Counted from the first letter of the stretch, positions 868-18,545 are shown. The stretch: 58,812 nucleotides of DNA from Bdellovibrionales bacterium (GCA_018969905.1 JAGWXK010000002.1:1-58812), one strand, 5' to 3'. Translations and numbers: made by a program. The notes: generated by a model not told the origin, from the sequence alone.

Positions 868-1550
868 AATTCCTCCCCCAAATAAACCCGAAGGACTTCC
901 GGATTCTTGGAAACCACGTCAGGAGTTCCATCACAAATGATCCTTCCCTGATCCAATACCGCAATTCTGTCACAAGTTCGAAAGAGTGGACCCATCACGT
1001 GCTCAACCCACACAACGGCGACACCGCTTTCCTTGAGAGAGCAAATGAGGGACGTGGCCTCCTCCATTTCCACAGCAGTCAATCCGGCCATTGCCTCATC
1101 GAGCAGCAGAGCCTTGGGTCGCAGGGCAAGCGCCCGCGCGACCTCCAATCGTTTCCGATCCATAAGATTTAGAGCACCCGAATCCCGATCCCTCTGATTT
1201 TGAAGCCCGACCTTTTGCAAGCATCGAATCGCAAGATCATGATCAGCCGTCGCTACTGCAACATTCTCAAACACACTGAGACCAAGGAGCGGCCGTGGAG
1301 TTTGAAAAGTACGCGCAATTCCCAGAGCTGCTGCGGTTGCGGGGTTTCGGAGCCGGACCACTTGATCCTTAAGAAAGATGGTTCCGGAATCCGGGGAATG
1401 CACCCCCGTTAAAACATTGAAGAGTGTCGATTTTCCGGCACCATTCGGACCCATAAGCCCGAGCACTTCACCCTCCTGCACGGAAAGATCCACCCCTTTG
1501 AGAACTTGAAGTCCTCCGAAAGAAATCCGGATCTGCTGACAGCGAATCAT
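864..1550 (-). CDS. livG: Branched-chain amino acid ABC transporter ATP-binding protein (LivG type)
   Basis: Walker A GPNGAGKST and Walker B LLLDEAMAGL. The ORF track extends to 1583, but the ATG at 1550 forms an ATGA overlap with the livM stop (tcat at 1547-1550), so I prefer 1550. Confidence 0.88.
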   Translation of the reverse strand: MIRCQQIRISFGGLQVLKGVDLSVQEGEVLGLMGPNGAGKSTLFNVLTGVHSPDSGTIFLKDQVVRLRNPATAAALGIARTFQTPRPLLGLSVFENVAVATADHDLAIRCLQKVGLQNQRDRDSGALNLMDRKRLEVARALALRPKALLLDEAMAGLTAVEMEEATSLICSLKESGVAVVWVEHVMGPLFRTCDRIAVLDQGRIICDGTPDVVSKNPEVLRVYLGEEF

Positions 1551-2407
1551 CTCCGCCCTCCGAGCAGACCCTGGGGCCTCCATCGAAAAACCAAAAGAAC
1601 CACGAGCGCATACAAAAACACATGGTGCTGGCCAAAATCACGCAGCCCCTCGGAAAGTATTTCCAGACCAAGGGCGCCAATCACCGGCCCAAGCCAGGTT
1701 CCCATGCCTCCGAGGATCGTCATGGCGAGGATCAAAAACATCTGGGAGAGACTTCCCATCTCAGGAGAGATCAAACCAAGATAATGTCCATAGAGCGCAC
1801 CCGCCAGTGATGCCACCGCACTGGATGCCGAAAACACCCATACCCTGAGTTTTTCGGTTTGAACTCCGAGACTGGCTGCTGCAAGCTCATCGCTCAGGAT
1901 CGCGCGAAGGTGCAACCCCGTTCTCGATCTTCGCACCCTTCGGATGAAAATCATCAGACTTACCAAAACAACTCCAAAAATCATAAGTGCGGCAATCTTC
2001 TGAGCTACGACTCCATTTTCAGAATCAGACCAAAGAAGCGGAACTTTGAGCCCGAGCGCTCCGCGGGTCCATTGATCCTCATTGGTCAAAAAGAGCCGAA
2101 ACAGTTCTGAAAATGCAAGCGTCACGAGCGCAAGATACGTTCCGTTCAAGCGAAGACTCAGCTTGCCAAGAAGCCCCCCAAACAGAGCACCGCAAAAAAA
2201 CGCAAGCGGCAGGGAAATCAGGATCGGCAGCCCAAAGTATAGCGTAATCAACGCCGAAACATAAGCGCCGAGCGACGCAAATGCGGCATGAGAGTACGTG
2301 GCGAATCCCGTCATCCCTGCAACCACATTCCAAGAGGATGCCAAAATCGCATAATACAGACCGATGATCCCCACATGCAGAATATACGGGTTAAACACGG
2401 TTTCCAT
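1547..2407 (-). CDS. livM: Branched-chain amino acid ABC transporter permease (LivM type)
   Basis: 286-aa polytopic membrane ORF with the C-terminal motif LILAMTILGGMGTWLGPVIGA typical of LivH/LivM permeases. It lies between livH and livG. Confidence 0.85.
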   Translation of the reverse strand: METVFNPYILHVGIIGLYYAILASSWNVVAGMTGFATYSHAAFASLGAYVSALITLYFGLPILISLPLAFFCGALFGGLLGKLSLRLNGTYLALVTLAFSELFRLFLTNEDQWTRGALGLKVPLLWSDSENGVVAQKIAALMIFGVVLVSLMIFIRRVRRSRTGLHLRAILSDELAAASLGVQTEKLRVWVFSASSAVASLAGALYGHYLGLISPEMGSLSQMFLILAMTILGGMGTWLGPVIGALGLEILSEGLRDFGQHHVFLYALVVLLVFRWRPQGLLGGRR

Positions 2408-3239
2408 ACAACCCCCTTGGCCTAAAGAGCAGGGTCAGGATCAAAAACAGAAATCCGAACGCGGGGGCATACCTGGTGGAGAGGTAATGTGATCCCAAAC
2501 TCTCCGCCAATCCGAGCAACAATCCCGCCACCGCTGCACCCCGGATCGATCCCATTCCACCGATCACCATCACTGAAATCGCCGTAAGAGTGACCTGCGC
2601 TCCGGAATCGGGAACCACCGGGAAAATTGGCGAAAGCACAACCCCCGCAAGTCCAGCCAATGCAGTCGAAATTCCAAAAGCCAGAGTCCGGGTCCTTACC
2701 GGGTTGATCCCGAAAGATAAGGCCACTTCCGGATCCTGGGCGACAGCACGGATGGCCCTTCCCATCCTTGTAAACCGCACCCAAAGGTAAAACATCAAAA
2801 AGGAAATCATCGCGATTGCACCTGAAACCATTCTTTGGCTCCCCATCGAAATTCCCGGAAAGATCTCAATGGAGCCATCAATCCTTGCCTCAGACTGGAC
2901 AGGATACGGACCAAAGAAAATAAGGAATGCGTTTGAAAGCACTATCGAGAGGATAAAGGTCATCATCATGGAGCGGTTGTGGTCACTTTCAGCTCTGGAC
3001 AAGAGAAGTCTTTCGGTCAGGACGCCTGCGATGAAACTCACAAGCAGGGAAAGAAGCAGAGACGGGATCAATCCAATTCCCGAACGAAGAAGGAAAGCAA
3101 AACAATAACTCGCAAGGACGAAAAACTCGCCATGAGAAAACTGAACGAGCCTCATGAGTCCCGCAATCAGGCTGAGCCCCATTGCGGAGACTGCATAAAT
3201 GCTACCGAGGACCAAGCCATTCAGAAGGGAGAATCCCAT
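2391..3239 (-). CDS. livH: Branched-chain amino acid ABC transporter permease (LivH type)
   Basis: 282-aa membrane ORF with the motifs QFSHGEFFVLASY and VMVIGGMGSIRGAAVAGLLLG. It overlaps livM by 17 nt. Confidence 0.85.
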   Translation of the reverse strand: MGFSLLNGLVLGSIYAVSAMGLSLIAGLMRLVQFSHGEFFVLASYCFAFLLRSGIGLIPSLLLSLLVSFIAGVLTERLLLSRAESDHNRSMMMTFILSIVLSNAFLIFFGPYPVQSEARIDGSIEIFPGISMGSQRMVSGAIAMISFLMFYLWVRFTRMGRAIRAVAQDPEVALSFGINPVRTRTLAFGISTALAGLAGVVLSPIFPVVPDSGAQVTLTAISVMVIGGMGSIRGAAVAGLLLGLAESLGSHYLSTRYAPAFGFLFLILTLLFRPRGLYGNRV

Positions 3240-3260
3240 TTCGGACCTTTCGGTGCCACT

Positions 3261-4466
3261 TCAGCGCATGATGGATCCGCGCGCGAGCTTTTTTGGATAA
3301 ACAATGATCTGTTTTTGATTCTGCCACTGTCCGATCAACATCGGCGGATTCCATTGATGATATTCGGGAGTTCCTTTTTTTGTCCCGAATTGCACCGTTC
3401 CGGTAGGACCCTTGAATTTGACATTCTCCAGGGCCTGTACCAGGTCCACACCACTGAATTCAGGTTTCTTTTTCGCCGCCGCTGCAATCGCCTCGGCAGC
3501 CAGAAGAATTGCGATGTAGGAAGATCGAGACTTATAGTCCGATGGGGCTTTTCCGAACTTTTTTTGGTAGCGGCTGAAAAAGAGCTTCGCTTCGGCGTTG
3601 GGCTGCACGGATTCATGCATCGATGTCAAATGAAGTTCTTTTTCTCCCGCAGCCTTCACATTGCTCCAATATTCAGGCCAGAGAGAAGGGGGTCCTGCAC
3701 CGTCCAAAATCAAGGCACCTGGAGTCACACCGATCTCGGCGGCTTGCGCAATCAAGGTATGAAGACCAAATGAGTAAATAAATGCCACGATCAAATCGGG
3801 GTTCTTTTCCTTGATTTGATTGAGCTCGTTGTAAAAATCCTTCGCTTTGGCGTCAATCTGAACGAGGGAATACGGTACCTTTGCAGCGTCCAGTGCTTTC
3901 GCCGTAAGCGCTGAAATGCCTTTGCCCCAATCAGAATTCTCAGCCACAATCACAACGTTCTTGAATTTTTGTCCGCCTTCTTTCGCTGAAATGAAGGGAG
4001 CGATTGCGTTGCTCACGACGGAGGAATTCGACGGCCCTTCTCGAAAGACCATCGGATATTTTTTTTCCATGATGGCATCCGCCCAAGCCTCGATCACCAT
4101 GAAAGGCACCTGATACCGTTCGGCAAGCTCGATCTCGGCAAGCGCACAGGAGGAGTGACTCTCGCCCACAATCATGTTCACTCTTTCCTTGGTCGCAAGT
4201 TTTTCAAAGGCTGCGGCTGCCTTCTCTGGAACACCGGCAGTGTCTTCCGCAATCACCGAAATCTTAGAGTACACACCGCCTTTTTCCTTCAACACATCCA
4301 GTGCAAGTTCGATTCCCTCCTGAAAAGCCGCTCCCGTTGCCGCCGCAGAACCAGTCTTTGGTCCGACAAAACCAATCGAGTAGCCCGTTGCAGCCAAGGA
4401 CTCTCCCAGAGGGAAACAGTTGATCAAGCCCAGACAAACCGAAACCAGGGAAACGATCTTCTTCAT
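3261..4466 (-). CDS. Periplasmic substrate-binding protein of the Leu/Ile/Val (type 1 PBP) ABC family
   Basis: The ORF runs to 4514, but the ATG at 4466 is preceded by a strong RBS (AAGGAGAATC-ATG) and gives the signal peptide MKKIVSLVSVCLGLINCF. Length and composition fit amino-acid binding proteins, and it heads the liv operon. Confidence 0.8.
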   Translation of the reverse strand: MKKIVSLVSVCLGLINCFPLGESLAATGYSIGFVGPKTGSAAATGAAFQEGIELALDVLKEKGGVYSKISVIAEDTAGVPEKAAAAFEKLATKERVNMIVGESHSSCALAEIELAERYQVPFMVIEAWADAIMEKKYPMVFREGPSNSSVVSNAIAPFISAKEGGQKFKNVVIVAENSDWGKGISALTAKALDAAKVPYSLVQIDAKAKDFYNELNQIKEKNPDLIVAFIYSFGLHTLIAQAAEIGVTPGALILDGAGPPSLWPEYWSNVKAAGEKELHLTSMHESVQPNAEAKLFFSRYQKKFGKAPSDYKSRSSYIAILLAAEAIAAAAKKKPEFSGVDLVQALENVKFKGPTGTVQFGTKKGTPEYHQWNPPMLIGQWQNQKQIIVYPKKLARGSIMR

Positions 4467-4679
4467 GATTCTCCTTTTTTTCAGGAATTTTGTATTCTTG
4501 GCCATGAATACCACCGCAAATTCATAAGGAAAAGGGCACCGCTCAATCCTGACTGAAACATCGTCAATTCAATGAATTCAGTTTGATTATTTTTCGATGC
4601 CTCTCCTCATTGGAAGAATTGCTGCTCGCGATTGTGTCTTGCCTGACACAGTGGCGGGTTCATTTCTTATCGAGCATAA

Positions 4680-6212
4680 TTGAATTTGGGGGGAATCTTG
4701 GATATTCGAACGAATAAGAAAGAGCTTTGTCGTTCTTTCATCCATTCATTGACCGTTTTGGGAATTTTTTTCGCCTCCTGCCTGCTCACGCCCCGCGTCT
4801 TCGCCGCACCTGCCGATGTGAAGAGGTTTCAACGATGCTACGCAATGTTCACCGGAATGAGGGTTCCGTCCGACGATGCCCGGTTGGCAGCGGTCAAATC
4901 TGGAAGCAAAACCGCCGCCAACGCATGCATGGAAGTCTTTGATCTTGCAACTCTCGGATCAAACAACAGGATCTCCACCACCACCGAACCGGCCCTGGCC
5001 ACCTCAATCCTGAAGAGGTTTCACGAATGGGGTCGAGGGTACGGAAAGGACAAGGACTTCTTCAACTCGTTTGAAACTGACCATACCGCCGAGATCCAAG
5101 ACCCGTACTTGATGGCAAATGCAATCACCTTTCTTTTGCTGAAACCCAACCAAAGCTTTTCAAAGCTGGTTACAGACACGATGTCGTATCGCACCATTCG
5201 GGAGAGGAATCAAACGCCCTCAGGCTTGATCTCAAATCCCTATCTGGGAATAGAGTTCTATTATCAAACCTGGACTAGCGGAGAGCTTCCTTTGGCGACT
5301 CCAGCCACACTTGTGCGACAGGGACGGCTTGTGGGGATCGAGCCTTCCACCACGGTCAATCCTTTTCCCCACACACCCGGCCGTTTCCCGGAAAAAAACA
5401 TGAACGCGAATCTCGGGGGCGGGATCCTTGGAGCCCAAGGATATCTTCTTGCCAAGATTACAACAAATTACTTCAACCGCATCCCGGACACAACAGAGAG
5501 CACTTACCGCAAAGACTCGATGGTGAACGGGGTTTCCAATACCCCGAGGCGGCTTGCAAAAACCATCCTCAGTGACTTGCTTTGTCGCGAGCTTCCTGCG
5601 CTTCATGAATCGGATGTGGTGAATCTTGCGAGTGCTGCCTATACGGTTCCATTTCGAAAGGCGACCGGATGTACCTCATGCCATGCGACCATGGACCCCC
5701 TTGCTGCGGTTTATCGGAATCAGGTTCCGATTCGTAGCATGGATGCAAACTCTCACCGCGGGTTCCGATTTTTTGCAACCAGAACCCCGGATCTGGCCTT
5801 AAACGAACCGATTTCCAACGATTCGATCTTCCCCCCGAACGGGGATGACCCGGACTTTTATCGAAAACCCCCGCGCGGTACCCTTCGTTTCAAATCGTAT
5901 GATGGAACCCTTGTCGAACAGCAGGTGAATGGGATTGCGGACCTCGGTACGAAAATCTCACTCACCAAGGATTTTTACGTTTGTGCCGCATCCAAGTTTT
6001 ACCGCTTCCTCACGGGAGTCAGGGTGAATCTTGCCGACATCACTCACCCGAACACAGCTCCCCTTTCCCCAGGTGCCACCGCACACAGAAACCTAGTCAT
6101 TCAACTGGGAGCGGATTCAACAACCGGTTTGATGGCACACAAGAGCCTACGCACCCTGATCCGGCAAATCATAGAGACCAACGCATTTTTAAATCCAGGA
6201 GTGGCGCCATGA
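4680..6212 (+). CDS. Secreted CxxCH-motif protein, DUF1588/PSD-like (putative haem-binding), function unknown
   Basis: 510-aa ORF with a TTG start at 4680 (start uncertain). It has an N-terminal hydrophobic signal (LTVLGIFFASCLLTPRVFA-AP) and the single motif CTSCHATMDP at nt 5670-5684. Its stop overlaps the next start (ATGA at 6209-6212). Confidence 0.6.
   Translation: MNLGGILDIRTNKKELCRSFIHSLTVLGIFFASCLLTPRVFAAPADVKRFQRCYAMFTGMRVPSDDARLAAVKSGSKTAANACMEVFDLATLGSNNRISTTTEPALATSILKRFHEWGRGYGKDKDFFNSFETDHTAEIQDPYLMANAITFLLLKPNQSFSKLVTDTMSYRTIRERNQTPSGLISNPYLGIEFYYQTWTSGELPLATPATLVRQGRLVGIEPSTTVNPFPHTPGRFPEKNMNANLGGGILGAQGYLLAKITTNYFNRIPDTTESTYRKDSMVNGVSNTPRRLAKTILSDLLCRELPALHESDVVNLASAAYTVPFRKATGCTSCHATMDPLAAVYRNQVPIRSMDANSHRGFRFFATRTPDLALNEPISNDSIFPPNGDDPDFYRKPPRGTLRFKSYDGTLVEQQVNGIADLGTKISLTKDFYVCAASKFYRFLTGVRVNLADITHPNTAPLSPGATAHRNLVIQLGADSTTGLMAHKSLRTLIRQIIETNAFLNPGVAP
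5670..5684 (+). other. CxxCH (c-type haem attachment-like) motif CTSCH followed by ATMDP
   Basis: Read directly: tgt acc tca tgc cat, in frame with ORF 4680..6212. Confidence 0.9.
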
Positions 6213-7981
6213 ATCCAAAAAAGAATGGAATCGGAATTCCACGGCGTGAGTTTTTAACCGATGTTGCCTCATCCGCAATTTCTGCAGGAATGCTCTCTTC
6301 GCGCGCATCCAGATTGATTTTCTCGGCTGCGATTGCGCACTTCTTGAAACCGGAACTCGCTCATGCGTCCACCCCGACCAATGACATGGTCTTTGTGAAT
6401 TTTTTCTGTTTCGGTGGCCTGGTCAAATGGGTTTTTGATCTGCCCCTGACCCCGAACACCACCGACTCGATTCCCACAAACCAAATCAATCCTTATGTTG
6501 GAACCCAAATCACTCCGGGCACCCTTGCCCTTACCTACAACACCGTGACCAATCCCCTTTTCCAAGGAATTCGGATGCCCAGTCTTTGGGGCGGACAGAT
6601 TCCGACCAACGGGGGCGGAAGCACTGCGATTGCGAATCTTACTCCGAATTTGCTGATGATTCGGGGGATCAACGAACTTTTTGATTCTCATGAAATCCAA
6701 TCAAAAAATCAGCTGCTGCTTGGGGGACAATACTCCATCACAGGACTTATGGCGGATGTGGCAACCACTCCGTTTCCGGCTTGCTCCTATGGGGACCCTC
6801 TCGCTTTCAATAGCAAACGGGGCCTCACGAATTTCAATATCAGTCGCACCTGGACCAACCCTCTTGAAACCGCTCTAGGCTCATTCAAAAACGATAGCCT
6901 TTGGGTCGAAAATAGCAGCGCGAGCCTCAGCGCTGCAATAGATAGCCTGCTGAACACCATGAAAACCGTCTCGGCATCCAAGCACGAGAGGCTCCCCTTG
7001 ACCTATGATCAAAGGGCGAAGGCCAAACAGTTGATTTTGACCCAGTTCGGAGACCTTCAAAATGAATTCAACACCCGGAGAAACATTTACAAAACCCTTT
7101 TGGAGAGTGCCCTCCGGAATTCGGCATTTCACACTTCTGGCCTCGACACCGTGAGTGTACCGGGACTCACCACTCCGGGTCCGGGAAACATCGACTATCA
7201 GAATCCGAACTCCTCCACCAGCAGATCGCTTCTTTCCCGAAGGCTGGGCCTTGAAAAAAACGTTGTCTACACTGGTGCCAATTTCAACGCTGCGTCCGTT
7301 TGGGCGAATGCGACCATTCCGCACATGGCGGAGGGCTTTGCCATCGCCGAATTCATGATCACCAAGGGCCTCACCTCATCCTTGAACATCTCCCTCGGGG
7401 GTTTTGCCGGGCTTTCCATCGACAATTCCCATGACTATTCAACCAATACCTCTTCGGCCAGATCCGATTATGGTTTCGGGAATACGGGCATGGACATGCA
7501 TGACACCGGCTCTGTGATTGCGACGATCGCCATGACCCGCTGGTATCGCGCCTATCTTGCCTGCATGAACCAGTTCATCAACGTCTTGAAAAATACTGCA
7601 GTACCGGGTGGAGGAAACATCTTCCAGCGAACAGTCATTGCCAATACCAGCGAGTTCAATCGCTCCCCGCGCGTTTTGGAGGATGGAAGTGATCACGGCT
7701 GGGCGGGACAGAGTTACAGTCTGTTCTCCGGAATGATTGAATCCTGCCAGGTGCTGGGAAACGTCGCGCCTTCCCAGAACACCGTGTATCCGGGCATCTG
7801 GGGCTTCAATGGCAAGATCGCGGAGAACAACAACCGTGAACTTCTGCTTGGAAACGTGGCAAGCACCCTTGCGACCCTTTTGAACATCCCTTCTCCCTCA
7901 CCGAACGAATCGACTCTCGTAAACAAAGTCAATGGAGTAGTGGCATCTTACACCATTCCAAGGGGGAAGAATGTGGCGTGA
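6209..7981 (+). CDS. Twin-arginine (Tat) exported protein, DUF1501/DUF1552-like (alkaline-phosphatase/sulfatase-fold family), function unknown
   Basis: The ORF track starts at 5981, but that part overlaps gene 1. The ATG at 6209 gives MNPKKNGIGIPRREFLTDVASSAISAGMLSS, a classic Tat signal. The C-terminal motif EDGSDHGWAGQSYSLFSG resembles the DH-containing metal-site motif of DUF1501/DUF1552/sulfatase-like proteins. About 590 aa. Confidence 0.55.
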   Translation: MNPKKNGIGIPRREFLTDVASSAISAGMLSSRASRLIFSAAIAHFLKPELAHASTPTNDMVFVNFFCFGGLVKWVFDLPLTPNTTDSIPTNQINPYVGTQITPGTLALTYNTVTNPLFQGIRMPSLWGGQIPTNGGGSTAIANLTPNLLMIRGINELFDSHEIQSKNQLLLGGQYSITGLMADVATTPFPACSYGDPLAFNSKRGLTNFNISRTWTNPLETALGSFKNDSLWVENSSASLSAAIDSLLNTMKTVSASKHERLPLTYDQRAKAKQLILTQFGDLQNEFNTRRNIYKTLLESALRNSAFHTSGLDTVSVPGLTTPGPGNIDYQNPNSSTSRSLLSRRLGLEKNVVYTGANFNAASVWANATIPHMAEGFAIAEFMITKGLTSSLNISLGGFAGLSIDNSHDYSTNTSSARSDYGFGNTGMDMHDTGSVIATIAMTRWYRAYLACMNQFINVLKNTAVPGGGNIFQRTVIANTSEFNRSPRVLEDGSDHGWAGQSYSLFSGMIESCQVLGNVAPSQNTVYPGIWGFNGKIAENNNRELLLGNVASTLATLLNIPSPSPNESTLVNKVNGVVASYTIPRGKNVA

Positions 7982-10900
7982 CCGGGGCTTCATCAAAATC
8001 CTCCCGACTCTTCTGCTGAGCCTGTCCTTATCGGCTTGCAACATTGGAATGCTGGGGGGGCCGGGCAAGCTCAATTTTCGCGCGGCTGAAGTATCATTAC
8101 CGGGGTATCCCCTTCTTGCCCCGACCTCTCAAATCACTCAAAACTCAGCGGTGATTTCCTGGACCACTCACTCCGATCCGCTTGCCTTCACCGGGACATT
8201 CCGCCTGAAATACAGTCGCACTGCGGATATGGCCGACCCTGTGGTGATTGAAAATGCGAATTCTCCCGTGACTCTGACTCCGCTTCTTCCGGGCACGCGC
8301 TATTTTGTACAGGTCGAAGGCTTGAATTCCGGAGGTTCGACTCCGTCTGAGATCAAGGAATTCACAACTCTTCAGGCGTTACCAGCCGTCCCGGTGATTG
8401 TCCAGATTTCGACCACATCCACCACCGCAACGATTGAGTGGGCTGCAGGTCAGGGAGGCGGTCCAACGGAATCCTACGCCTTGCTCTATGCTCAAGGCAC
8501 CAACCCACTTACTGCAACTCCCATGGCCGTGACACTGCCCGGCCCCATTCAGCTCACCGGTCTCACCACCGGTGCAAGCTACAGTTTTGTGATCCGGGCA
8601 ACAAATGCGTCCGGCACATCCAGCACCACAATACAAACCTTTTCACCGGTCGCATCTGCTCCGGGAGCTCCTGTTTTGGGTCAGGTCACAAGCATCACAC
8701 CAACCAGCGCTGTGATTTCCTGGACTCAAGGCACCGGTGGAACGCCCACCAGCCATCAAGTGATGGTCTCCACAAGCTCGAATTTTGTCGGGGCTGTTCC
8801 GGTTCAGGCCACCTCGCCCCATACTGTCTCGAACCTGAGCCCCGCCACACTTTATTACTTTCGGGTAACCGCGCTGAACTCGAGCGGAAACGCCGCCTCT
8901 TCAGACGGTAGCTTCAATACCGCTCCCGCTGCGCCCGGAGTGCCGACGATTTCTGTAACCCCATCCCAAAATAGCGCAAGCTTCACCTTTGCTGCAGGAC
9001 CGGGCGGCCCGGTCACAAGTTTCAGCCTCGTGATCTCAATCCAAAGCAATCTATCCAGTCCTCTCAGCACACCGAATCCTGTGACAAGCCCCTACGTTCA
9101 GAACTCCCTTTTGCCCGCAACGACCTATTTCTATCGATTGACCGCAACCAATTCCACCTCCAGCACACAAACCCAAATCCAGTCTTTTCAAACACAAGCC
9201 GTTCCCGCGGGCGCTCCTGTATTGGGTGCAGTTACCGCCATCACCGCTTCGGGTGCCACCCTGAATTGGTCGCCAGCACAGGGGTTTCCGGCGCCGGCAT
9301 CCTATCAAGTCCGCTTTGGTACGAACCAAAACCTCTCGGCCGTGAATCCGGTTTCAGTTACGACTACCAGTCGAGTGCTCACAGGGCTTGCTGCAAGCAC
9401 ACTCTACTATTACCAGGTGACTGCGGTTTCAAGCACGGGAAGCCTTGCTTCTAGCTCGGGCTCATTCACAACCAATCCGAATCCGCCATCGGCTCCGAGC
9501 GGAATTACCGTCTCGGCGATCACCGCAACCGGAGCGACGGTCGCCTTCACCGGGGGAACAGGAGCAACAAGCCACAACCTTCAATACTCGACGAGTTCCT
9601 CGTTTCCCACTGGCGCTACAACCACGAGCATCAATGGAGTTTCCTCGCCCGTTGCGATCTCAGGACTTTCCGCAAACACCCCGTACTTTGTCCGGATCAT
9701 TGCGGTGAACTCTGCAAGCACAACCCCATCCAGCGCCTCGAGTTTTACCACTCTCATGAACGCGCCCTCCGCACCCACCGGAGTGCAGGCGGTTTGTTCC
9801 CTAACCAGCGCGCAAATCACCTTCACCGCCGGTGCCGGGGCCACCAGCCACTCCGTTGAAACCTCGACCAGCTCCTCTTTTGCAGGCTCTCCCCTCGTCA
9901 CCAACAACGCCCAAAGCCCGACCGCGGTTTCAAGTCTGACCACTGGAACTCCGTATTTCTTCAGGGTTCGGGCCACAAATAACGGAGGATTCAACATCTC
10001 CAGCACGGTAAGCTGCACACCGATTCTCCAGGTACCGGGCGCACCTTCCAATGTCGTGGTGACTGCTACGACGATCACCACGGCCACCCTCACCTTTACG
10101 GGGGGCGCGGGGGCAACCACTCACGAAATTCTCCATACCTGGGACTCGAGTTTCGCAAGTGATGTTGTCACCGTCGCCAATGCATCCTCCGGAATCACCA
10201 TTTCGAATCTGGTACCCGGTTCCACAAATTATCTGAGGGTTTTCGCAATCAATTCCGCCGGATCCACAAGCTCAAGCCAGATCACCCTGATCACTCCCCC
10301 AAGACTCCCCAGCGCCCCCGCGCTTGGCACTACCCTCAACATTACCTCGAACTCCGCATCCGTGGTCTGGAGTTCCGGGGGTACGCAGTCCCACACTTCG
10401 TTTTCGAACACACTCCATCCGAAGATGCAGCAATACTGTGCCTCCTGCCATGCTACATTTTTCAACACCTCACCACACGCCTCACCTGACGCCGGAGTTG
10501 CCCATGATGCGATGTACTTTGTGAATTCCACCAATCAACGAAAAATCGACCCGGCGATTCCCGCAAATTCGCTCCTCTTGAAGAAAATCAATACAGGTCA
10601 CGGGGGCTGCTCACCAACCTGCAGATCCGAAATCACCTCTGCGGTGAACGCATGGCTCACTGCAGGTGGAATGACCACCGGAGTTGCATCCTCCTTTAAA
10701 GTGCGGGTGGCCACCTCAAGCGGAGGGCTTGCCTCCGCAACTCCGATCAACAATGCGGCCTCTCCGCAAGTCGTCGGCGGCGCCTTGAGTTCCGGCACAA
10801 GTTACTCTTTTCAAGTCGAGGCCACAAATTCCGCAGGGAACTCCCTCTCGCAGATCGGTACCTTTACAACTCTCGGTCAAGGGACAACCCCCACTCCTGC

Positions 10901-11474
10901 TCCTATTGATTTTGATGCGGACCTTCGAATGGGCGACCGGAACTACGTCCAATCGGTCATTGTCCAGAATTTCGGTGTGTCGATCCCCGCTGAAATGGTT
11001 TGGGAAGCTCCTGTTCAAAACATTGCCCCGAGCGAACTTCTAGGGCTCAAGGTGTTTCAGGAATCCGCCTTCGGTGGAGGCTGCGATATCTATGCGTCTG
11101 GAGTGCTATCCGGTTTTCCTGTGGAGTTCAGTCGTGAGCGATGTTTTGACAACATGACTGCTTACGATCCTCCCGTCACAAATCCAAGACGGTACGGCAG
11201 TATTGCTCCGGTCTGCAACAAAATGGTAAGTAACACCACGACCCGTGACTTTGCCTTCAACAAAATCTTCGGAAGCTCGACTCCGGGGCCAATCAATGAC
11301 ACCAACCTTGGAAGGGCCTATCAACTTTTTTTCCAAGAGGAGGACCTCCCTCCCGCCACCAAAGACAAGTTGATTGAACTTGCGAATACCCAGGGTACCC
11401 TAACGGACAAGTGGAGAGTCATCATTCTTGGTCTTTGCGTCTCCCCGGAATGGCAATCCATCGAATCCCAATAA
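7971..11474 (+). CDS. Large surface lipoprotein: lipobox, about 9 fibronectin type III modules, an inserted PSCyt-like CxxCH module, and a roughly 200-aa C-terminal domain
   Basis: The ATG at 7971 is preceded by AGGGGGAAGA and overlaps gene 2 by 11 nt. Signal and lipobox: LLLSLSLSAC. The protein has repeated modules of about 90 aa ending in YYFRVTALNSSG / YFVRIIAVNSAS / YFFRVRATNNGG. CASCH lies at nt 10437-10451. Confidence 0.8.
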   Translation: MWRDRGFIKILPTLLLSLSLSACNIGMLGGPGKLNFRAAEVSLPGYPLLAPTSQITQNSAVISWTTHSDPLAFTGTFRLKYSRTADMADPVVIENANSPVTLTPLLPGTRYFVQVEGLNSGGSTPSEIKEFTTLQALPAVPVIVQISTTSTTATIEWAAGQGGGPTESYALLYAQGTNPLTATPMAVTLPGPIQLTGLTTGASYSFVIRATNASGTSSTTIQTFSPVASAPGAPVLGQVTSITPTSAVISWTQGTGGTPTSHQVMVSTSSNFVGAVPVQATSPHTVSNLSPATLYYFRVTALNSSGNAASSDGSFNTAPAAPGVPTISVTPSQNSASFTFAAGPGGPVTSFSLVISIQSNLSSPLSTPNPVTSPYVQNSLLPATTYFYRLTATNSTSSTQTQIQSFQTQAVPAGAPVLGAVTAITASGATLNWSPAQGFPAPASYQVRFGTNQNLSAVNPVSVTTTSRVLTGLAASTLYYYQVTAVSSTGSLASSSGSFTTNPNPPSAPSGITVSAITATGATVAFTGGTGATSHNLQYSTSSSFPTGATTTSINGVSSPVAISGLSANTPYFVRIIAVNSASTTPSSASSFTTLMNAPSAPTGVQAVCSLTSAQITFTAGAGATSHSVETSTSSSFAGSPLVTNNAQSPTAVSSLTTGTPYFFRVRATNNGGFNISSTVSCTPILQVPGAPSNVVVTATTITTATLTFTGGAGATTHEILHTWDSSFASDVVTVANASSGITISNLVPGSTNYLRVFAINSAGSTSSSQITLITPPRLPSAPALGTTLNITSNSASVVWSSGGTQSHTSFSNTLHPKMQQYCASCHATFFNTSPHASPDAGVAHDAMYFVNSTNQRKIDPAIPANSLLLKKINTGHGGCSPTCRSEITSAVNAWLTAGGMTTGVASSFKVRVATSSGGLASATPINNAASPQVVGGALSSGTSYSFQVEATNSAGNSLSQIGTFTTLGQGTTPTPAPIDFDADLRMGDRNYVQSVIVQNFGVSIPAEMVWEAPVQNIAPSELLGLKVFQESAFGGGCDIYASGVLSGFPVEFSRERCFDNMTAYDPPVTNPRRYGSIAPVCNKMVSNTTTRDFAFNKIFGSSTPGPINDTNLGRAYQLFFQEEDLPPATKDKLIELANTQGTLTDKWRVIILGLCVSPEWQSIESQ
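8118..10871 (+). repeat. Protein-level tandem array of about 9 FN3 modules (86-93 aa each; module 9 is interrupted)
   Basis: My module boundaries in aa are 50-135, 136-227, 228-317, 318-408, 409-501, 502-594, 595-684, 685-775 and 776-967. The conserved pattern is AP-x-A/G-P ... (I/L)xW ... Y(Y/F)(F/Y)x(V/I)xAxNxxG ... F(T/N)T. The modules have diverged at the nucleotide level. Confidence 0.8.
10437..10451 (+). other. CxxCH motif CASCH inside FN3 module 9
   Basis: Read directly: tgt gcc tcc tgc cat, in frame with ORF 7971..11474. Confidence 0.9.
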
Positions 11475-11637
11475 GCGCGCTCCCGTTCCACGCCAGCGAC
11501 ATTCGCGGCAAAAGTGCCATAAAATCGAAGGCATTTCGCCAGAACGGATCTCCCCACTCCCCATTCGATGAGGCTGCTTTCGTGCTTGCATGGCAAAGCA
11601 AATCATTATACCCGTAGGGAACGATTCGGGAGGTGAT

Positions 11638-12123
11638 ATGAAGGCAATAACCGGTTTTTTTTACATTTTTCCTGTTTTCTTTTTGTTCTTGGGGTCCTCA
11701 GTTTCTTGTTCTATCGCTCATGCCCAGGCCGGCTGGTACCACGTTGAAAAAGTGTCTCTCGAATTTCACGAACTGATCCGGGTTGAACTTCAAGGCACCG
11801 TGGTGGAGTCCAGCGATCCCTCTCTCAAGGCCACGAGCATCCCGTTTCTTCAATCGCTTCATTATTTCGGATCCCTTTCCCGATCCGAACGTCGCTACTT
11901 TCCCTCCATCTCTGAAATCCGAACCTGGATTTTAAGTGATGTATGCAAAGAAACCCACGAACAAACCCTGAAACCAATGCGCGAAGTGGGCAACATCGGC
12001 ATCAATCCGATCAAAAGCAAAGTCAAGCCGATTTCTGTCACCGCAATCGGCACACGCATCGACTCAAAAGGGGCCACTTACTCAGAAACGGTCTTTTGCC
12101 CTAGGCACTCCGCGCAGCCTTAG
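11638..12123 (+). CDS. Hypothetical secreted protein
   Basis: The ATG at 11638 is preceded by GGAGGTGAT and gives the signal peptide MKAITGFFYIFPVFFLFLGSSVSCSIAHA-Q. I recognised no family motif. Confidence 0.55.
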   Translation: MKAITGFFYIFPVFFLFLGSSVSCSIAHAQAGWYHVEKVSLEFHELIRVELQGTVVESSDPSLKATSIPFLQSLHYFGSLSRSERRYFPSISEIRTWILSDVCKETHEQTLKPMREVGNIGINPIKSKVKPISVTAIGTRIDSKGATYSETVFCPRHSAQP

Positions 12124-12152: not shown

Positions 12153-13328
12153 CTAGCGATTTTGATCCGCACTTTTTGAGCGGTTGTCAGCTGGATATTG
12201 CTTGATTTCTCCGGGATAACGAATCGGACCGTCGTCCGAATTCATTGTGCTTCCCTCCTGAATTGGCATGGGCATTCCCAATCCTCCTGGAGCCGGGACT
12301 GCCCCATTTTTTTTGAGTTTATATCTCTGATTTTTTTGCACCCATTTGATCCTTCTCAGGTCTTCTTTTTCTGCTTTTTTGAACTCACAGGAAACGGGCT
12401 CGAACCCCTTACCCAATTGCAACTCAAGGACTGCCCTCGCCTCAACAAGCTCGACCTCAAGCCTATCCATTTGCTTTTCCAAAGCTTCGCAATTCTCTGA
12501 TTTTTGCGGGTACTTCTGACGCTGACCTCGACGATCTCTGCTCTCCCTGTCCTTTCTTTCAAGGCAAAGGTCCAGAAGATTTTGAGTTTTTTCCAGTGCA
12601 ACTATTTTTTCATCTACTGTTTTTTGCGCAATATGGATGCCGTCGAAGGATTCTTTGCACTTTTCTGCAATGAAGAAATCATCACCTCTTATACAATATG
12701 CACCATCTGTCAGAAGCGGATTGGTCACAAGTTTTGAATCGATTAATTCATCACATCCGCACAGCGTGATTCCCCTTTTTTTGACAGGCTTCGAACTTCC
12801 GCAAAAAACGAGATCGGGATTTCTACCTGGAAATGCAATAGGCTGAATCATCGGACCGCCTGGTCCCATGCCCATGATGGATGGTCCACTATCCCCCATG
12901 CAATATATTGTTCCGCCCTTGTTTTTACTGACTTCGGAGATCCGCGAACTGCAACTTCTGTTGCATTCCACACACTCGGCGTCCGCATCCTCCGCAGAGG
13001 ATTTGGAAGTTGTAGCCACATGGGTAGTAGCCGTACTTTGAGCTGACCCCGCTACACTTTCGATTTCCTTTTTGGTCGCACGCCTTAGGCACTTTTTGAA
13101 ATCGAATATACTCCTTGAAGTACCCTCAGGGATTGTACAAGCCAATTTTTTATAAACCTTTCCGTCGTCCGAAGAACAAAGATCCCCGACCGCAAGACCC
13201 ACATTCAGAGGCGATCCACCAGATCCCTGTACATAACACTGAGGCAGATCTTGTGCCACAGCAGCCCCTGCCCCAAATCCCGCTAACAACAAACCGAACA
13301 AAGCCAAGTGTTTAACTAAACGATTCAT
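12153..13328 (-). CDS. Hypothetical secreted Cys-rich protein with a charged coiled-coil segment
   Basis: The ORF track starts at 13487. The internal ATG at 13328 gives the signal peptide MNRLVKHLALFGLLLAGFGAGAAVA-Q. The mature part has many Cys (CVECNRSC, CGC) and a K/E/R-rich helical region. No family recognised. Confidence 0.55.
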   Translation of the reverse strand: MNRLVKHLALFGLLLAGFGAGAAVAQDLPQCYVQGSGGSPLNVGLAVGDLCSSDDGKVYKKLACTIPEGTSRSIFDFKKCLRRATKKEIESVAGSAQSTATTHVATTSKSSAEDADAECVECNRSCSSRISEVSKNKGGTIYCMGDSGPSIMGMGPGGPMIQPIAFPGRNPDLVFCGSSKPVKKRGITLCGCDELIDSKLVTNPLLTDGAYCIRGDDFFIAEKCKESFDGIHIAQKTVDEKIVALEKTQNLLDLCLERKDRESRDRRGQRQKYPQKSENCEALEKQMDRLEVELVEARAVLELQLGKGFEPVSCEFKKAEKEDLRRIKWVQKNQRYKLKKNGAVPAPGGLGMPMPIQEGSTMNSDDGPIRYPGEIKQYPADNRSKSADQNR

Positions 13329-13490
13329 AAATGTTCTCCCGAAAGTGCAGCAAATCAAATGCCTGCCTGCATCTCTTCCGTCTAGTTTGATGCACAAGTG
13401 CCATCGATACAACCGGCAAATCCTACCGACATACGAGCGGCAAAAATTACCGACTTGTCTTCCGTCTTTTGCCCTTAAACTATCCAAAGC

Positions 13491-13889
13491 ATGGCCCCGT
13501 TTCGGCTTTTTTCATTCATTGGTTTTATTCTTCTTCTCAAGGGCGGAAATGCACTTGCAGGACGTGTCGACGCCTCAAACTTTTTTTGCCCCGACTTTGA
13601 GGATCTTCCAAAGGAATCCATAAAACCCTTTCCCCCAATCCTGATTGTCAAAGATAAACTCATGATCTGCAGCATGCAGGCACTCTGCCACTTCAAGAGC
13701 GACCCTCGGAAATCCTTGATTCGGGTTGCAATTGCATGTCCCGGAACAGAAGTCGGTTCTTGCCCACCTCCCGAAATCTGCAAGAAAACGGGCGGTCTGA
13801 CACTAGATCAGGCGTCCATTGAAACCTTGAAATCCAATGCACCACCTCTGGGCAGGAAACCCACCGAAACTAAAAAAGGACAACAGTAG
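13491..13889 (+). CDS. Hypothetical small secreted Cys-rich protein
   Basis: 132-aa ORF with signal peptide MAPFRLFSFIGFILLLKGGNALA and 7 Cys in the mature part. It is divergent from 12153..13328. Confidence 0.5.
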   Translation: MAPFRLFSFIGFILLLKGGNALAGRVDASNFFCPDFEDLPKESIKPFPPILIVKDKLMICSMQALCHFKSDPRKSLIRVAIACPGTEVGSCPPPEICKKTGGLTLDQASIETLKSNAPPLGRKPTETKKGQQ

Positions 13890-13891
13890 AT

Positions 13892-14161
13892 ATGAAACCC
13901 ATGACGCTGTTTCGATTCATTCTTTTTCTTTTGGTTCTCAATGTCCCGAAGCCCGCTCACTCGATGCTCCTTTTGGAACTTCAGGGTAAAATCGTATCTT
14001 TTACCGAGGAATGGGTCAGCCTTGACCATGGAAGAGTTCGCTACACCATCAACCGGAACAAATTGAGGCCCGAGGATGCGGCACAAATCAAGGGCGTCGA
14101 TACCCTGGTTTCGTTTGTAGTCGACCCGGACTCAATCATCGAAGCTCGAACCATGAAGTGA
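13892..14161 (+). CDS. Hypothetical small secreted protein
   Basis: 89-aa ORF starting 2 nt after the previous stop, with signal-like N-terminus MKPMTLFRFILFLLVLNVPKPAHS. Confidence 0.45.
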   Translation: MKPMTLFRFILFLLVLNVPKPAHSMLLLELQGKIVSFTEEWVSLDHGRVRYTINRNKLRPEDAAQIKGVDTLVSFVVDPDSIIEARTMK

Positions 14162-14203
14162 GATCCTTGAAGAGAAAAAGAACAAACTGGATCCATTTTT
14201 CTC

Positions 14204-14902
14204 TCAGACTTCAATCCACTCACCCGTTTTTAGCGAATCAAGAAAATAACTCCCGTATTGAATCCGTTTCAAGCTGCGGACATCATGACCCAAGGCCGCA
14301 CACAACCGCCGGATCTCGCGATTCTTTCCTTCGGTCAAGACCAACTCAATGAGACTTTCCTTTCCGCTCACCTTAAGAAGCTTGGCTCCCTCTACCGATA
14401 GCCTTTCACCTTGATCCATCACTCCGGACTTCATTTTCTGAAGGGTAGAATCCAATGCCTCGCCCTCCACCCCAACAATGTACACGCGCTCAATCCCACT
14501 CTTTGGATCCGTCATGAAGCTTGAAAACTTCGTGTCGTTGGTAAGTAAAAGCAAACCCGAGGTATGCATGTCGAGCCTCCCCACCGCATGAAAAGTTGCA
14601 AACTGCTCAGGGAGCAGATCATAGATGGTTTTCCTGCCCTCGGGATCCCGCTTTGTGGTGAGCACTCCTTTTGGCTTGTGAAACAGGATCACGCGAGTGT
14701 GCGATTTCTCGGCCTTCACACCGTCGACCTGGATATGCGCGGTATCGGGATTCACGGCACGCTCCGGGTTTGTTTCAATGCTCCCATGGACCTTCACCCG
14801 GCCCGATTCGATCGCAATCCTTGCCTCGATCCTGGAAGCAAGGCCTAGCTTCGATAGCGCGCGAAACAGCGGAACTCGGCCCTTTTTTCGAGATTTTGAC
14901 AT
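14204..14902 (-). CDS. rRNA pseudouridine synthase, RsuA/RluB/RluF family (S4 domain plus catalytic domain)
   Basis: N-terminal S4-like RALSKLGLASRIEARIAIESGRVKVHG. Catalytic motif HAVGRLDMHTSGLLLLTND with the Asp of GRLD. C-terminal EGKNREIRR. Confidence 0.88.
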   Translation of the reverse strand: MSKSRKKGRVPLFRALSKLGLASRIEARIAIESGRVKVHGSIETNPERAVNPDTAHIQVDGVKAEKSHTRVILFHKPKGVLTTKRDPEGRKTIYDLLPEQFATFHAVGRLDMHTSGLLLLTNDTKFSSFMTDPKSGIERVYIVGVEGEALDSTLQKMKSGVMDQGERLSVEGAKLLKVSGKESLIELVLTEGKNREIRRLCAALGHDVRSLKRIQYGSYFLDSLKTGEWIEV

Positions 14903-14930
14903 TCTTCATACCCTAGCATAAAGTTCGGAC

Positions 14931-15284
14931 ATGGAAAAACTCACCGCTGAAAATTACAAAAAAGGCTTCCTTATGGATGAAGAACTCATGGCGGGAATCT
15001 CCGAGGACAAGTCCAATCCGGGAACTTTTCACGCATTCGTGGTAAGGCACACCACCGGTGAGTCGCTCGGGCACCAGCTTTTCTCGGATGTATTCGAGGC
15101 CATCCGTACCCTGAACGGAATTGATCGAAACTGGTCATTCGAGGCCGTTTCAAAATGCGGTAACGGAAATTGCGGTAACGGAAATTGCGGAAAATCAGGC
15201 GGCGGCTGCGGGAGAATGAAAACAGGATCCAGCGAAGACTCGAATCCAGCTCAAAGCTCGTGCGAATCCGGATCTTGCTCCTGA
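14931..15284 (+). CDS. Hypothetical protein with a Cys/Gly/Asn-rich C-terminal tail
   Basis: 117-aa ORF whose tail is CGNGNCGNGNCGKSGGGCG...SSCESGSCS. The tail is encoded by a 15-bp tandem repeat. Confidence 0.5.
   Translation: MEKLTAENYKKGFLMDEELMAGISEDKSNPGTFHAFVVRHTTGESLGHQLFSDVFEAIRTLNGIDRNWSFEAVSKCGNGNCGNGNCGKSGGGCGRMKTGSSEDSNPAQSSCESGSCS
15156..15195 (+). repeat. 15-bp tandem repeat tgcggtaacggaaat, 2 full copies plus a partial third
   Basis: Copies at 15156-15170 and 15171-15185 are identical. The third copy begins tgcgg at 15186 and then diverges. The repeat encodes CGNGN-CGNGN-CG. Confidence 0.9.
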
Positions 15285-15976
15285 TTTCGGCCTAGAACCA
15301 GTCTTTTTACACAATTCTCATATCTGACCAGGTGCTTTTGCAATTGCAGACCTGAGAGATAAAACAGGAGCGAAAACAGAATGATCCCGAAGATCTGGGC
15401 TCCCCACTGCGAAATCTGCTCAACCCAGGTTTTAAACACGCCAAGTATCCCGTTTTCTTGAACCTCTTCCACCCCACCACCTATATCCAGGAATTGGTAC
15501 ATAAAAAACAAGACCACTGCGACCAAAGAGGAGAGGTATCGGTTTTTTGATTCCATGCGCTTGATTTGCTCGCTCAGATGAAAGGAAACCACCCTCCACT
15601 CCCCTGCAGTCAGGGGCAGTTCTTTGCTCATACGCGTTGCCGTTTCCTCGCCCCACTTCACCTCCACTGCGCTCTCCTCCAGCAAGGATCCAAGTCCTCC
15701 CATCCGGAATACCCGGGGTAGATCACGGAATGTGGGCCAGAGATAAAAAATCGTGAAAAGAAAGGGCGGAAGAAATAAAATCAGATCCACATACTTAAAG
15801 GAATTCATGATCTGGAATCTTCGAAGACCATACATTGCAAGCGAAAGAATCGCGGGAATGACAAGGCACCAAAGTACCAGGCTAAAAACTTTTCGATTCA
15901 CAAGGTTCCGGGTTTTATTCATATCCTCCTGAACCCACTTCACAAATCTCAAATAAACCTCGGAGTATTGCTTCAA
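15251..15976 (-). CDS. Hypothetical integral membrane protein
   Basis: 241-aa ORF with several hydrophobic spans (VFSLVLWCLVIPAILSLAMYGL, LILFLPPFLFTIFYLW, LVAVVLFFMYQFL, IFGIILFSLLFYL). It overlaps the start of ymdB by 4 nt. Confidence 0.55.
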   Translation of the reverse strand: MKQYSEVYLRFVKWVQEDMNKTRNLVNRKVFSLVLWCLVIPAILSLAMYGLRRFQIMNSFKYVDLILFLPPFLFTIFYLWPTFRDLPRVFRMGGLGSLLEESAVEVKWGEETATRMSKELPLTAGEWRVVSFHLSEQIKRMESKNRYLSSLVAVVLFFMYQFLDIGGGVEEVQENGILGVFKTWVEQISQWGAQIFGIILFSLLFYLSGLQLQKHLVRYENCVKRLVLGRNQEQDPDSHEL

Positions 15977-18336: not shown

Positions 18337-18545
18337 ACCAAAGAACCCGCCAGGATGCCCCCGCGACCCATCCACCCCGAACCGAACCTCTGGATTCCGC
18401 GGATTCCACGGTCCGTGTGAACGGCTTGGAGCAAGTCATTGAGCTGCTCCGCCATGCGGACCCATCCTTCCGGAACTCGCTACTGAAGCGCCTGCAGGCA
18501 CGGGATCCGGCTCTGGCTCAGAGGCTTCTTCGGATCATTCGTTAA
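18333..18545 (+). CDS. Hypothetical small protein
   Basis: 70-aa ORF with an ATGA overlap with the preceding coiled-coil ORF. It has a helical C-terminus (VIELLRHADPSFRNSLLKRLQARDPALAQRLL). Its 3' end overlaps the convergent peptidase gene by 11 nt. Confidence 0.4.
   Translation: MNQRTRQDAPATHPPRTEPLDSADSTVRVNGLEQVIELLRHADPSFRNSLLKRLQARDPALAQRLLRIIR

Follow-up and report, generated by a model that had tools for sequence, protein, structure and literature searches.

A three-gene locus of Bdellovibrio-like bacteria as a putative distant variant of "planctomycete cytochrome" and DUF1501 pairs

What would bind a protein with a haem-type CxxCH motif, a twin-arginine (Tat)-exported protein and a giant fibronectin type III (FN3) lipoprotein into one set of overlapping genes, and which of their parts belong together? 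The question is raised by a 58,812-nucleotide (nt) stretch of DNA from a Bdellovibrionales bacterium (GCA_018969905.1 JAGWXK010000002.1:1-58812), here called the window, in which three long, overlapping open reading frames (ORFs), g1, g2 and g3, follow one another on the plus strand. An initial annotation, made from the sequence alone, had placed g1 and g2 with the widespread pairs of "planctomycete cytochrome" (PSCyt/PSD) and DUF1501 or DUF1552 proteins and had taken the FN3 stalk of g3 for the new element. The family assignment proves right in spirit; the new element is replaced by two others, a conserved C-terminal domain of g3 (g3C) and a small cytochrome-like module that wanders from one subunit to another. 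The hard-wired unit, present in every sufficiently complete related locus, is g1 + g2 + g3C, because g3C accompanies the pair while the FN3 stalk is limited to the clade of the window. The locus thus described is a real, coherent system of a kind already known but functionally orphan; judged by its sequence, it appears to be a distant three-part variant of the "planctomycete cytochrome" and DUF1501 pairs, so far found mainly in Bdellovibrio-like bacteria.

The conserved three-gene unit

The genes and their parts (aa, amino acids) are the following.

4680-6212, plus strand: g1, ORF of 510 aa from TTG 4680 (the database gene call starts at TTG 4698 and gives 504 aa)
5556-5708, plus strand: PSCyt3 (DUF1588)-like stretch of g1, aa 293-343, including CTSCH; Pfam E 0.044, 14.5 bits against a cutoff of 27
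5919-6038, plus strand: PSD2 (DUF1585)-like stretch of g1, aa 414-453 (…DFYVCAASKFYRFLTG…); Pfam E 0.058, 13.6 bits against a cutoff of 25.8
6209-7981, plus strand: g2, 590 aa from ATG (the mechanical ORF opens earlier, at 5981)
7971-11474, plus strand: g3, lipoprotein ORF of 1167 aa
8103-10307, plus strand: eight complete FN3 domains of g3, aa 45-779, from Pfam fn3 and unit alignment; Ser/Thr-rich, diverged at the DNA level
10308-10880, plus strand: ninth FN3, aa 780-970, interrupted by the CxxCH module; aa 780-807 and 901-970 align with the other FN3 units
10392-10670, plus strand: nested CxxCH module, aa 808-900, an insertion of ~93-100 aa between strands of the ninth FN3; contains CASCH
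10896-11474, plus strand: g3C, conserved C-terminal domain, aa 976-1167 (~190 residues), recognised by tblastn and hidden Markov model (HMM) in related loci

The overlaps described initially are there: g1 and g2 share an ATGA at 6209-6212, and g2 and g3 share 11 nt, from the g3 ATG at 7971 to the g2 stop at 7981. Shine-Dalgarno-like, purine-rich runs stand 5' of g2 (CAGGAG), of g3 (AAGGGGGAAG) and of the alternative g1 start at TTG 4698 (GGGGGG). Relatives keep the gene order and overlaps of 4, 8 and 11 nt, the 11-nt overlap of g2 and g3 being kept in those that are 64-73% identical, and a scan of the operon for internal terminators and promoters returned none that was significant. The three genes are presumably co-transcribed and co-translated as one operon.

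If the FN3 stalk is the most conspicuous part of g3, is it also the part that holds the trio together? The fn3 model (PF00041) matches g3 in 9 stretches (196 bits, E 9.6e-59, above the Pfam cutoff), the units align with one another, no tandem DNA repeats were found in the region, and the protein opens as bacterial lipoproteins do, with the N-terminus MWRDRGFIKILPTLLLSLSLSAC and the lipobox LSAC at 8028-8039 (LSLSAC), so that the anatomy given by the initial annotation for g3 holds throughout. The FN3 version of g3, however, is confined to the 64-73% identical relatives (L001, L002 and the contigs of P0002 and P0003), and most related loci carry a short g3C protein free of FN3; neither the stalk as a hard-wired element nor a general co-occurrence of FN3 lipoproteins with such pairs survives the comparison. 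In L001, the continuous 1172-aa g3 frame (L001:5461-8979) is left blank by the public gene call over 5498-7960, with just a 339-aa fragment called; where FN3 repeats are so dense, this gap is apparently an artefact of annotation.

It is g3C that makes up the conserved third partner. It is marked by the motifs DRxYV..FG, FGGGCDxY, RxG..C, AYxLFF and W..I..LCxSPEWQ and carries three to four conserved Cys; no Pfam match (10 members scanned, with PSD3 and PSD5 among the models) and no PDB match was found for it. By tblastn and HMM it occurs at the matching position in L001, L003-L012 and L015-L017, directly after g2 in L003, L005-L012 and L015-L017; in most of these loci it makes up a protein of 217-287 aa, usually with a lipobox of its own, and the start of g3 often overlaps the stop of g2. 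A lipobox is present in g3 of L001, L003-L010 and L014, and an ordinary signal peptide in that of L017. The trio is complete in the window, L001, L003-L010, L016 and L017; of the incomplete loci, L011, L012 and L015 have g3C behind g2, L002 has g1, g2 and the start of g3 before the contig end cuts it, and L013 gave no g3C match. L004 is ordered g3-g1-g2: its g3C, found at hmmsearch E 2.2e-21 with an HMM built without the L004 sequence, ends a 1382-aa lipoprotein of Big-like repeats directly 5' of g1. The g3 of L014 begins with a CxxCH module, continues with Ricin_B lectin and Big_7 domains and runs off the contig before its C-terminus. FN3 repeats, Big repeats and the ricin lectin are lineage-specific additions, the stalk having been elaborated with at least two different repeat types (FN3 and Big).

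The locus scans, which used two short peptide patterns, gave 8 genome and 4 metagenome loci, and a word-indexed search with the g3C profile found 8 proteins. Of the eight genome loci, seven are named as Bdellovibrionota (Bdellovibrionales, Bacteriovoracaceae, Bacteriovorax, Pseudobdellovibrionaceae), the eighth, L013, being a metagenome-assembled genome (MAG) of Hyphomonadaceae; the label Bdellovibrionales is also borne by one relative each of g1 and g3C, and the closest relatives of the window are metagenome contigs. Because the scans relied on short patterns, this taxonomic range is a lower bound.

In g1, a Sec signal peptide ending at VFA/AP precedes CTSCH at 5670-5684 (CTSCHATMDP), as first described and confirmed by translation, which likewise confirms CASCH at 10437-10451 in the g3 module (CASCH...IDPAIPANSLLLKKINTGHGG); apart from these two, no CxxCH motif lies in a plausible coding frame anywhere in the 58.8-kb window. 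Both proteins thereby show the sequence hallmark of c-type cytochromes, a CxxCH in an exported chain, behind a Sec signal in g1 and behind a lipoprotein signal in g3. A word-indexed search found 23 homologues of g1 (26-66% identity). Among the 20 aligned, C302, C331, C334, H335, D339 and C435 are invariant (numbering from 4680): the C..CH is kept in 20/20, the Asp four residues after it and one Arg are likewise invariant, and two further invariant Cys sit in LLCRELP and FYVCAA. Some relatives bear insertions, such as a PA14 domain in P0025. While g1 itself does not reach the Pfam cutoffs for PSCyt3 (PF07627) and PSD2 (PF07624), its relatives, run against Pfam one by one, match PSD2 in 15 of 20 cases (best E 3.6e-4) and PSCyt3 in 7 of 20 (best E 0.003); the g1 relative of L017 matches PSCyt3 at E 0.0016, and the succession PSCyt3-like then PSD2-like in g1 is the canonical one. 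PSCyt2, PSD1 and PSD4 matched none of the 20 relatives, and PSD4 (PF07631), PSD3 and PSD5 had no Pfam match in g1, its N-terminal half, g3C, the 20 g1 relatives or 10 g3C relatives. A kinship of g1 with DUF1800 was considered and ruled out (hhalign probability 0.1%). In all, g1 is probably a Sec-exported, largely helical protein and a remote relative of the PSCyt3-PSD2 "planctomycete cytochromes".

The second protein, g2, bears the twin-arginine signal and the GSDHGW motif that had been ascribed to it (RR at 6242-6247, in IPRREFLTD; GSDHGW at 7685-7702). The RR is invariant in 74/74 homologues, TAT_signal is matched by 3/6 and 7/74 relatives, and a twin-arginine signal peptide, in g2 IPRREFLT, is itself a trait of DUF1501-type proteins. 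On its own, g2 has no Pfam match at E<=1, no NCBIfam match and no PDB sequence match, and it stays below the gathering cutoff of DUF1501 (PF07394, 27 bits); yet 60 of the 74 sampled family members match DUF1501 weakly (best E 9.5e-10), and hhalign aligns the g2 family with a bona fide DUF1501 protein (that of L013, 96.4 bits) at 95.9% probability and E 6e-9 over the C-terminal ~100 residues, the SEFNR...GSDHGW region. DUF1552 (PF07586) was matched by 0/74 at E<=0.1. Therefore g2 is best regarded as a remote DUF1501 relative outside Pfam's membership rule. Thus, the proposed kinship with PSCyt/PSD and DUF1501/DUF1552 pairs stands as a set of remote, family-level links to PSCyt3/PSD2 and DUF1501, and falls for DUF1552 and at the level of thresholds, below which all window proteins remain, the PSCyt3 and PSD2 matches of g1 included. 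A profile of six g2 homologues, run against 1.84 billion cluster representatives, found 731 of them, 548 at E<=1e-30, and among the matches listed almost all are full-length (roughly 500-630 aa); the relatives of g2 appear to form a sizeable family that lacks a database model of its own.

An AlphaFold2 model of g2 built on a 74-sequence alignment (predicted local distance difference test, pLDDT, 89.3; predicted template modelling score, pTM, 0.89) replaced an unusable one built on 6 sequences (pLDDT 51). The top 50 Foldseek matches of this model in the PDB are all alkaline phosphatases, sulfatases, LtaS or phosphonate monoester hydrolase, which would agree, at the level of the superfamily, with the phosphatase fold first proposed for g2; the model weakly suggests a fold of the alkaline-phosphatase superfamily, with a large helical insertion at ~aa 238-303. 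H161, Y294, E381, D429 and H431 are invariant in 74/74 members, D77, S176, R485 and H496 are found in >=68/74 and D495 in 64/74. Because the Asp/His set (H161, D429, H431, D77, H496) is invariant or nearly so, the putative metal ligands D77, H161, D429, H431, D495 and H496 can be read as a working bimetal site.

A wandering cytochrome module and the surroundings of the trio

What, then, of the CxxCH module nested in g3? The initial annotation saw in it a repeat of the g1 haem-motif region, but a copy of that kind can be dismissed: the BLASTP E is only 0.01, and the likeness is essentially that of the C.SCHAT motif. Its own Pfam matches are weak (Cytochrome_C7 0.017, Cytochrome_CBB3 0.17), and PSCyt1 (PF07635, cutoff 22 bits) has no match in it. 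It is 30% identical to the module in the g3 of L014, and in a single hhalign comparison it aligns with the small cytochromes associated with other trios at 91.5% and E 8.6e-7. The module is thus probably a divergent relative of the small PSCyt1/cbb3-type cytochrome domains; together with g3C, the window-type module appears to make two families that have no database model. PDB sequence searches with g2, with the g1, g2 and g3C profiles and with the g3 module found no significant relative, and a mixed module profile found only class I cytochromes, weakly.

Nearly all loci have a small CxxCH domain along with the trio, in varying positions:

Nested in g3: window clade (window, L001/L002), by unit alignment
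Before g3C: L004 (Cytochrome_CBB3 E 1.8e-5)
At the g3 N-terminus: L014
At the g1 N-terminus: L007 (PSCyt1 27.3 bits against a cutoff of 22)
At the g1 C-terminus: L017
As the next gene: L005 and L010 (Cytochrom_C 22.5 bits against 21.3 in L010)
As a protein of 120-132 aa a few kb off: L003, L006, L007 and L008, partly beside a conserved ~390-aa CxxCH protein

The repeated, independent fusion of cytochrome modules is the strongest evidence obtained that haem chemistry is part of what the trio does.

Several of these arrangements involve genes of their own. In one subclade, a fourth gene lies directly 3' of g3 (L005:11921-12541, L010:8164-8775, L009:8347-9009); its product of ~205-220 aa ends in a cytochrome-c-like domain, the L009 copy lacking CxxCH. 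A second conserved set occurs near the trio in L003 (12015-15117, minus strand), L006 (9570-12111, plus strand) and L007 (1645-3851, plus strand, and 8210-8602, minus strand): a 120-131-aa cbb3/PSCyt1-like cytochrome, a ~390-aa CxxCH protein (39-62% identity between loci, no Pfam match) and a ~345-aa protein. A YceI gene precedes this set in L003, and the window has no counterpart of it. In L017, the site of a very divergent trio, g1 reaches 924 aa through large insertions and its C-terminal cytochrome module, and a 1950-aa protein with a cEGF-like match is encoded ~2 kb downstream (L017:12150-18002, minus strand).

The surroundings of the operon in the window are of another kind. The flanks hold unrelated housekeeping genes, with a Liv-type ABC transporter upstream and YmdB, GatA/GatB, AsmA and type II secretion genes farther along. 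Immediately upstream lie the following.

3261-4514, minus strand: Liv-type binding-protein gene, divergent from g1
4515-4679, plus strand: intergenic stretch between that gene and g1, presumed promoter region

A promoter scan of 4515-4679 found no consensus promoter, and Rfam and tRNA scans of the window found no RNA family and no tRNA. The binding-protein gene belongs to a complete Liv-type branched-chain amino-acid ABC transporter operon (199-4514, minus strand; two ATPases, two permeases, binding protein). ORFs without a Pfam match adjoin the trio at 11590-12123 (plus), 12153-13487 (minus), 13491-13889 (plus) and 15251-15976 (minus), the first three having no counterpart in the related loci. 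At 18535-19959 (minus strand), the window encodes a homologue of Peptidase_S28 (serine carboxypeptidase S28, E 3.5e-75), a mostly eukaryotic family. In L001, a putative arsenic-resistance-like cluster (12754-15498: MIP channel, LMW phosphatase, glyoxalase, ArsR-type HTH), adjoined by a phage-type integrase, lies a few kb from the trio.

What the trio may do

The explanation favoured here is a membrane-tethered, haem-linked metalloenzyme complex. As an overall picture it is given an even chance; the anatomy and the family relationships merit more confidence than that, and the redox relay less. In this complex, g1, g2 and g3 would assemble stoichiometrically in the cell envelope, tethered by the lipid of g3; g2 would be the catalytic subunit, a metalloenzyme of the alkaline-phosphatase superfamily, and g3C would dock g1 and g2 and tie both to the membrane. 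In the lineage of the window, g3 would have gained eight FN3 spacers and, directly beside g3C, a ninth FN3 with the nested cytochrome-like module. An FN3 unit is 3-4 nm long, and because there are eight to nine of them, the catalytic head could stand as far as ~30 nm away from the lipid anchor and would contain a second haem site. Haem would be bound at the g1 CxxCH site and in the g3 module, and electrons could pass, in one direction or the other, among the module, the g1 site and the metal centre of g2, where they would drive the cleavage or modification of an ester-type group or gate it via the redox state of the metal centre. The substrate would probably be polymeric, a glycan or an envelope-derived molecule; the hint is given by the relatives, because a lectin (Ricin_B with Big_7 in the g3 of L014) and PA14 (P0025) occur among them.

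Several observations weigh against this picture. No window protein reaches a curated Pfam threshold for the PSCyt or DUF1501-type families, and none has a relevant NCBIfam match; nor do the window's own modules have a significant cytochrome match. Where its relatives have Met-Pro, the g3 module has GHGGC..C, and the four invariant Cys of g1 could equally make two disulfides. The Foldseek matches of g2 are individually weak (E>=0.013, TM 0.2-0.3). No Ser, Thr or Cys is conserved in the g2 family just after the first strand, presumably the position of the "GGxS" motif of DUF1501, and S176 is only a guess at an alternative nucleophile. The window g2 also departs from the family consensus, with K293 (kept in 66/74 relatives) replaced by I and PPR71-73 by LVK, both changes being shared by its close relatives. 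L009 and L016 have no CxxCH module outside g1 within the flanks examined, the gene after g3 there being a weak relative of the cytochrome-tailed proteins of L005 and L010. Finally, we know of no characterised enzyme of the alkaline-phosphatase superfamily that needs a cytochrome partner.

Could the trio work without any electron transfer? In a purely hydrolytic complex, the CxxCH and other Cys would be structural (disulfides or a Zn/Cu site), and g1 and g3 would bind the substrate and anchor a phospho- or sulfo-esterase for nutrient scavenging. The fold and metal ligands of g2 are indeed those of hydrolases and transferases, the four invariant Cys of g1 and the three to four conserved Cys of g3C would suit such a role, and so would the g3 module of the window, with its extra C..C pair, its missing Met ligand and its lack of a significant cytochrome match. 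This explanation, though the main rival, is unlikely, for all 20 g1 relatives keep the His right after the second Cys, and domains of cytochrome c type are fused to the trio or adjoin it repeatedly and independently, with PSCyt1 (L007) and Cytochrom_C (L010) above their cutoffs and Cytochrome_CBB3 near its cutoff (L003, L004). If, on the other hand, the missing nucleophile at the expected DUF1501 position, the deviations of the window g2 at family-conserved residues (I293, LVK71-73) and the very weak structural matches to real enzymes are taken at face value, g2 could be a non-catalytic pseudo-enzyme or binding protein, and the trio could serve, at the surface or in the periplasm, as a receptor or sensor of, say, a phosphorylated or sulfated ligand. 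That is quite improbable given the pattern of a working metal site (H161, E381, D429, H431 and Y294 invariant in 74/74; D77, H496 and R485 nearly so) and Tat export, which, as has been argued for DUF1501, suggests that the protein folds with a cofactor before it is exported (Kamneva et al., 2012, PMC3542564).

At the other extreme, the FN3 lipoprotein would be an independent adhesin or surface-layer protein that happens to follow an unrelated CxxCH/DUF1501-like pair. Lipoproteins rich in FN3 are common at cell surfaces, and the FN3 part is missing from most related loci; but wherever a related locus continues beyond g2, g3C comes immediately next (the sole exception, L004, has it directly before g1), its gene often overlaps that of g2, and the 11-nt overlap is kept in close relatives, so that this explanation is very improbable and largely refuted. 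A bolder version of the haem-linked complex would make the trio a split, lipid-anchored form of a single-chain "planctomycete cytochrome" partner, g3C standing for the PSD3/PSD5 half and g1 for the half with PSCyt3-PSD2 and perhaps PSD4, and together they would form a new haem-dependent redox enzyme on an alkaline-phosphatase-fold metal centre, with stalks and lectins reaching polymeric glycan or prey-envelope substrates. The likeness of g3C to PSD3 + PSD5 is an assumption from the consensus motifs of these families. Pfam scans of 10 g3C members gave no such match, and this version is improbable; if true, it would give a first mechanistic handle on the large orphan DUF1501 and PSCyt families.

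The logic of a DUF1501 protein with a CxxCH partner exists, in Bdellovibrio-like bacteria, in a very divergent form that Pfam misses; the locus adds to it a lipoprotein as obligatory third subunit and a cytochrome-c module that sits now on one subunit, now on another, and the wandering cytochrome offers independent genomic evidence tying haem or redox chemistry to the function. The compact three-gene versions (about 500 + 550 + 240 aa) would be simple to express and reconstitute.

Comparison with known systems

How far does the trio resemble what is already described? DUF1501 genes adjoin genes for PSCyt1/PSCyt2/PSD1 proteins in Planctomycetes, Verrucomicrobia and Lentisphaerae, and some DUF1501 multi-gene clusters include Big_2 and WD40 domains; a membrane-targeted electron-transport role was proposed for these modules, their function being stated as unknown (Kamneva et al., 2012, PMC3542564). 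Genomes of Planctomycetes and Verrucomicrobia encode DUF1501 proteins and their CxxCH partners in large numbers, and papers of 2012 and 2017 still describe their function as unknown (PMC3542564; He et al., 2017, PMC5615132), in keeping with the initial remark that such pairs have no established role; a full-text search of a limited set of papers, by DUF and PSCyt name, gave none with a functional characterisation of these families. As in those modules, a gene for a DUF1501-type protein with a Tat signal adjoins one for a CxxCH protein with a signal peptide, and the partners come with Ig-like and carbohydrate-binding domains and extra PSCyt1 modules. Unlike them, g2 is below the DUF1501 threshold, g1 is PSCyt3/PSD2-like and not PSCyt2/PSD1-like, the trio has an obligatory lipoprotein subunit in g3C, and its named relatives are Bdellovibrionota and not members of the Planctomycetes-Verrucomicrobia-Chlamydiae (PVC) group.

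In the published rule, PSCyt3 pairs with DUF1552 and PSCyt2/PSD1 with DUF1501, and group III consists of PSCyt3/PSD4 proteins (with PSD2, PSD3 and PSD5) paired with DUF1552, PSCyt3 always coming with PSD4 (He et al., 2017, PMC5615132). The trio recalls group III in that g1 is PSCyt3-like and PSD2-like in canonical order beside a Tat-exported partner; it differs in having no PSD4, PSD3 or PSD5 match, in its DUF1501-like partner and in scores that all lie under the Pfam cutoffs. No match to canonical group III proteins on plasmids was found by tblastn with the C-terminal half of g1. The pairing is crossed with respect to the published rule, because g1 is PSCyt3/PSD2-like yet g2 is DUF1501-like, with 0/74 DUF1552. 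The Hyphomonadaceae MAG locus (L013:3093-6330) encodes a canonical pair of a DUF1800 protein (599 aa, E 4e-83) and a DUF1501 protein (473 aa, E 2.6e-27). Such pairs are a third way in which DUF1501 finds a partner, and g1 has no kinship with them: as in the trio, a gene for a ~600-aa protein is followed by a DUF1501 gene, but g1 is not DUF1800, and g3C has no match there.

With enzymes of the alkaline-phosphatase superfamily, g2 would share its predicted fold and the D-x-H and (G)SDHG metal-ligand motifs; it differs from them in the helical insertion at ~aa 238-303, in very weak structural scores (TM 0.2-0.3), in having no recognisable nucleophile motif (C/S-x-P-x-R, or the Ser/Thr of AP/NPP) and in its obligate association with a cytochrome partner.

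An experimental anchor is found elsewhere. Cbp2D of Cellvibrio japonicus is built as CBM2 - YceI-like X158 - FN3 - cytochrome c X183 - DUF1587 - X132, and its X183 domain has been shown experimentally to bind haem and donate electrons, reducing lytic polysaccharide monooxygenases (LPMOs; Branch et al., 2021, PMC8981238). No sequence similarity between Cbp2D and the window module has been demonstrated, and Cbp2D has neither a DUF1501 partner nor a lipoprotein anchor, its acceptor being an LPMO. Like the trio, however, Cbp2D is a secreted multidomain mix of FN3, a small single-CxxCH cytochrome and a PSD-type domain (in Cbp2D, DUF1587), and the YceI theme recurs in the YceI genes near the trio in L001 and L003. 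Cbp2D is the nearest experimentally anchored counterpart for the combination of FN3, a small cytochrome and a PSD-type domain.

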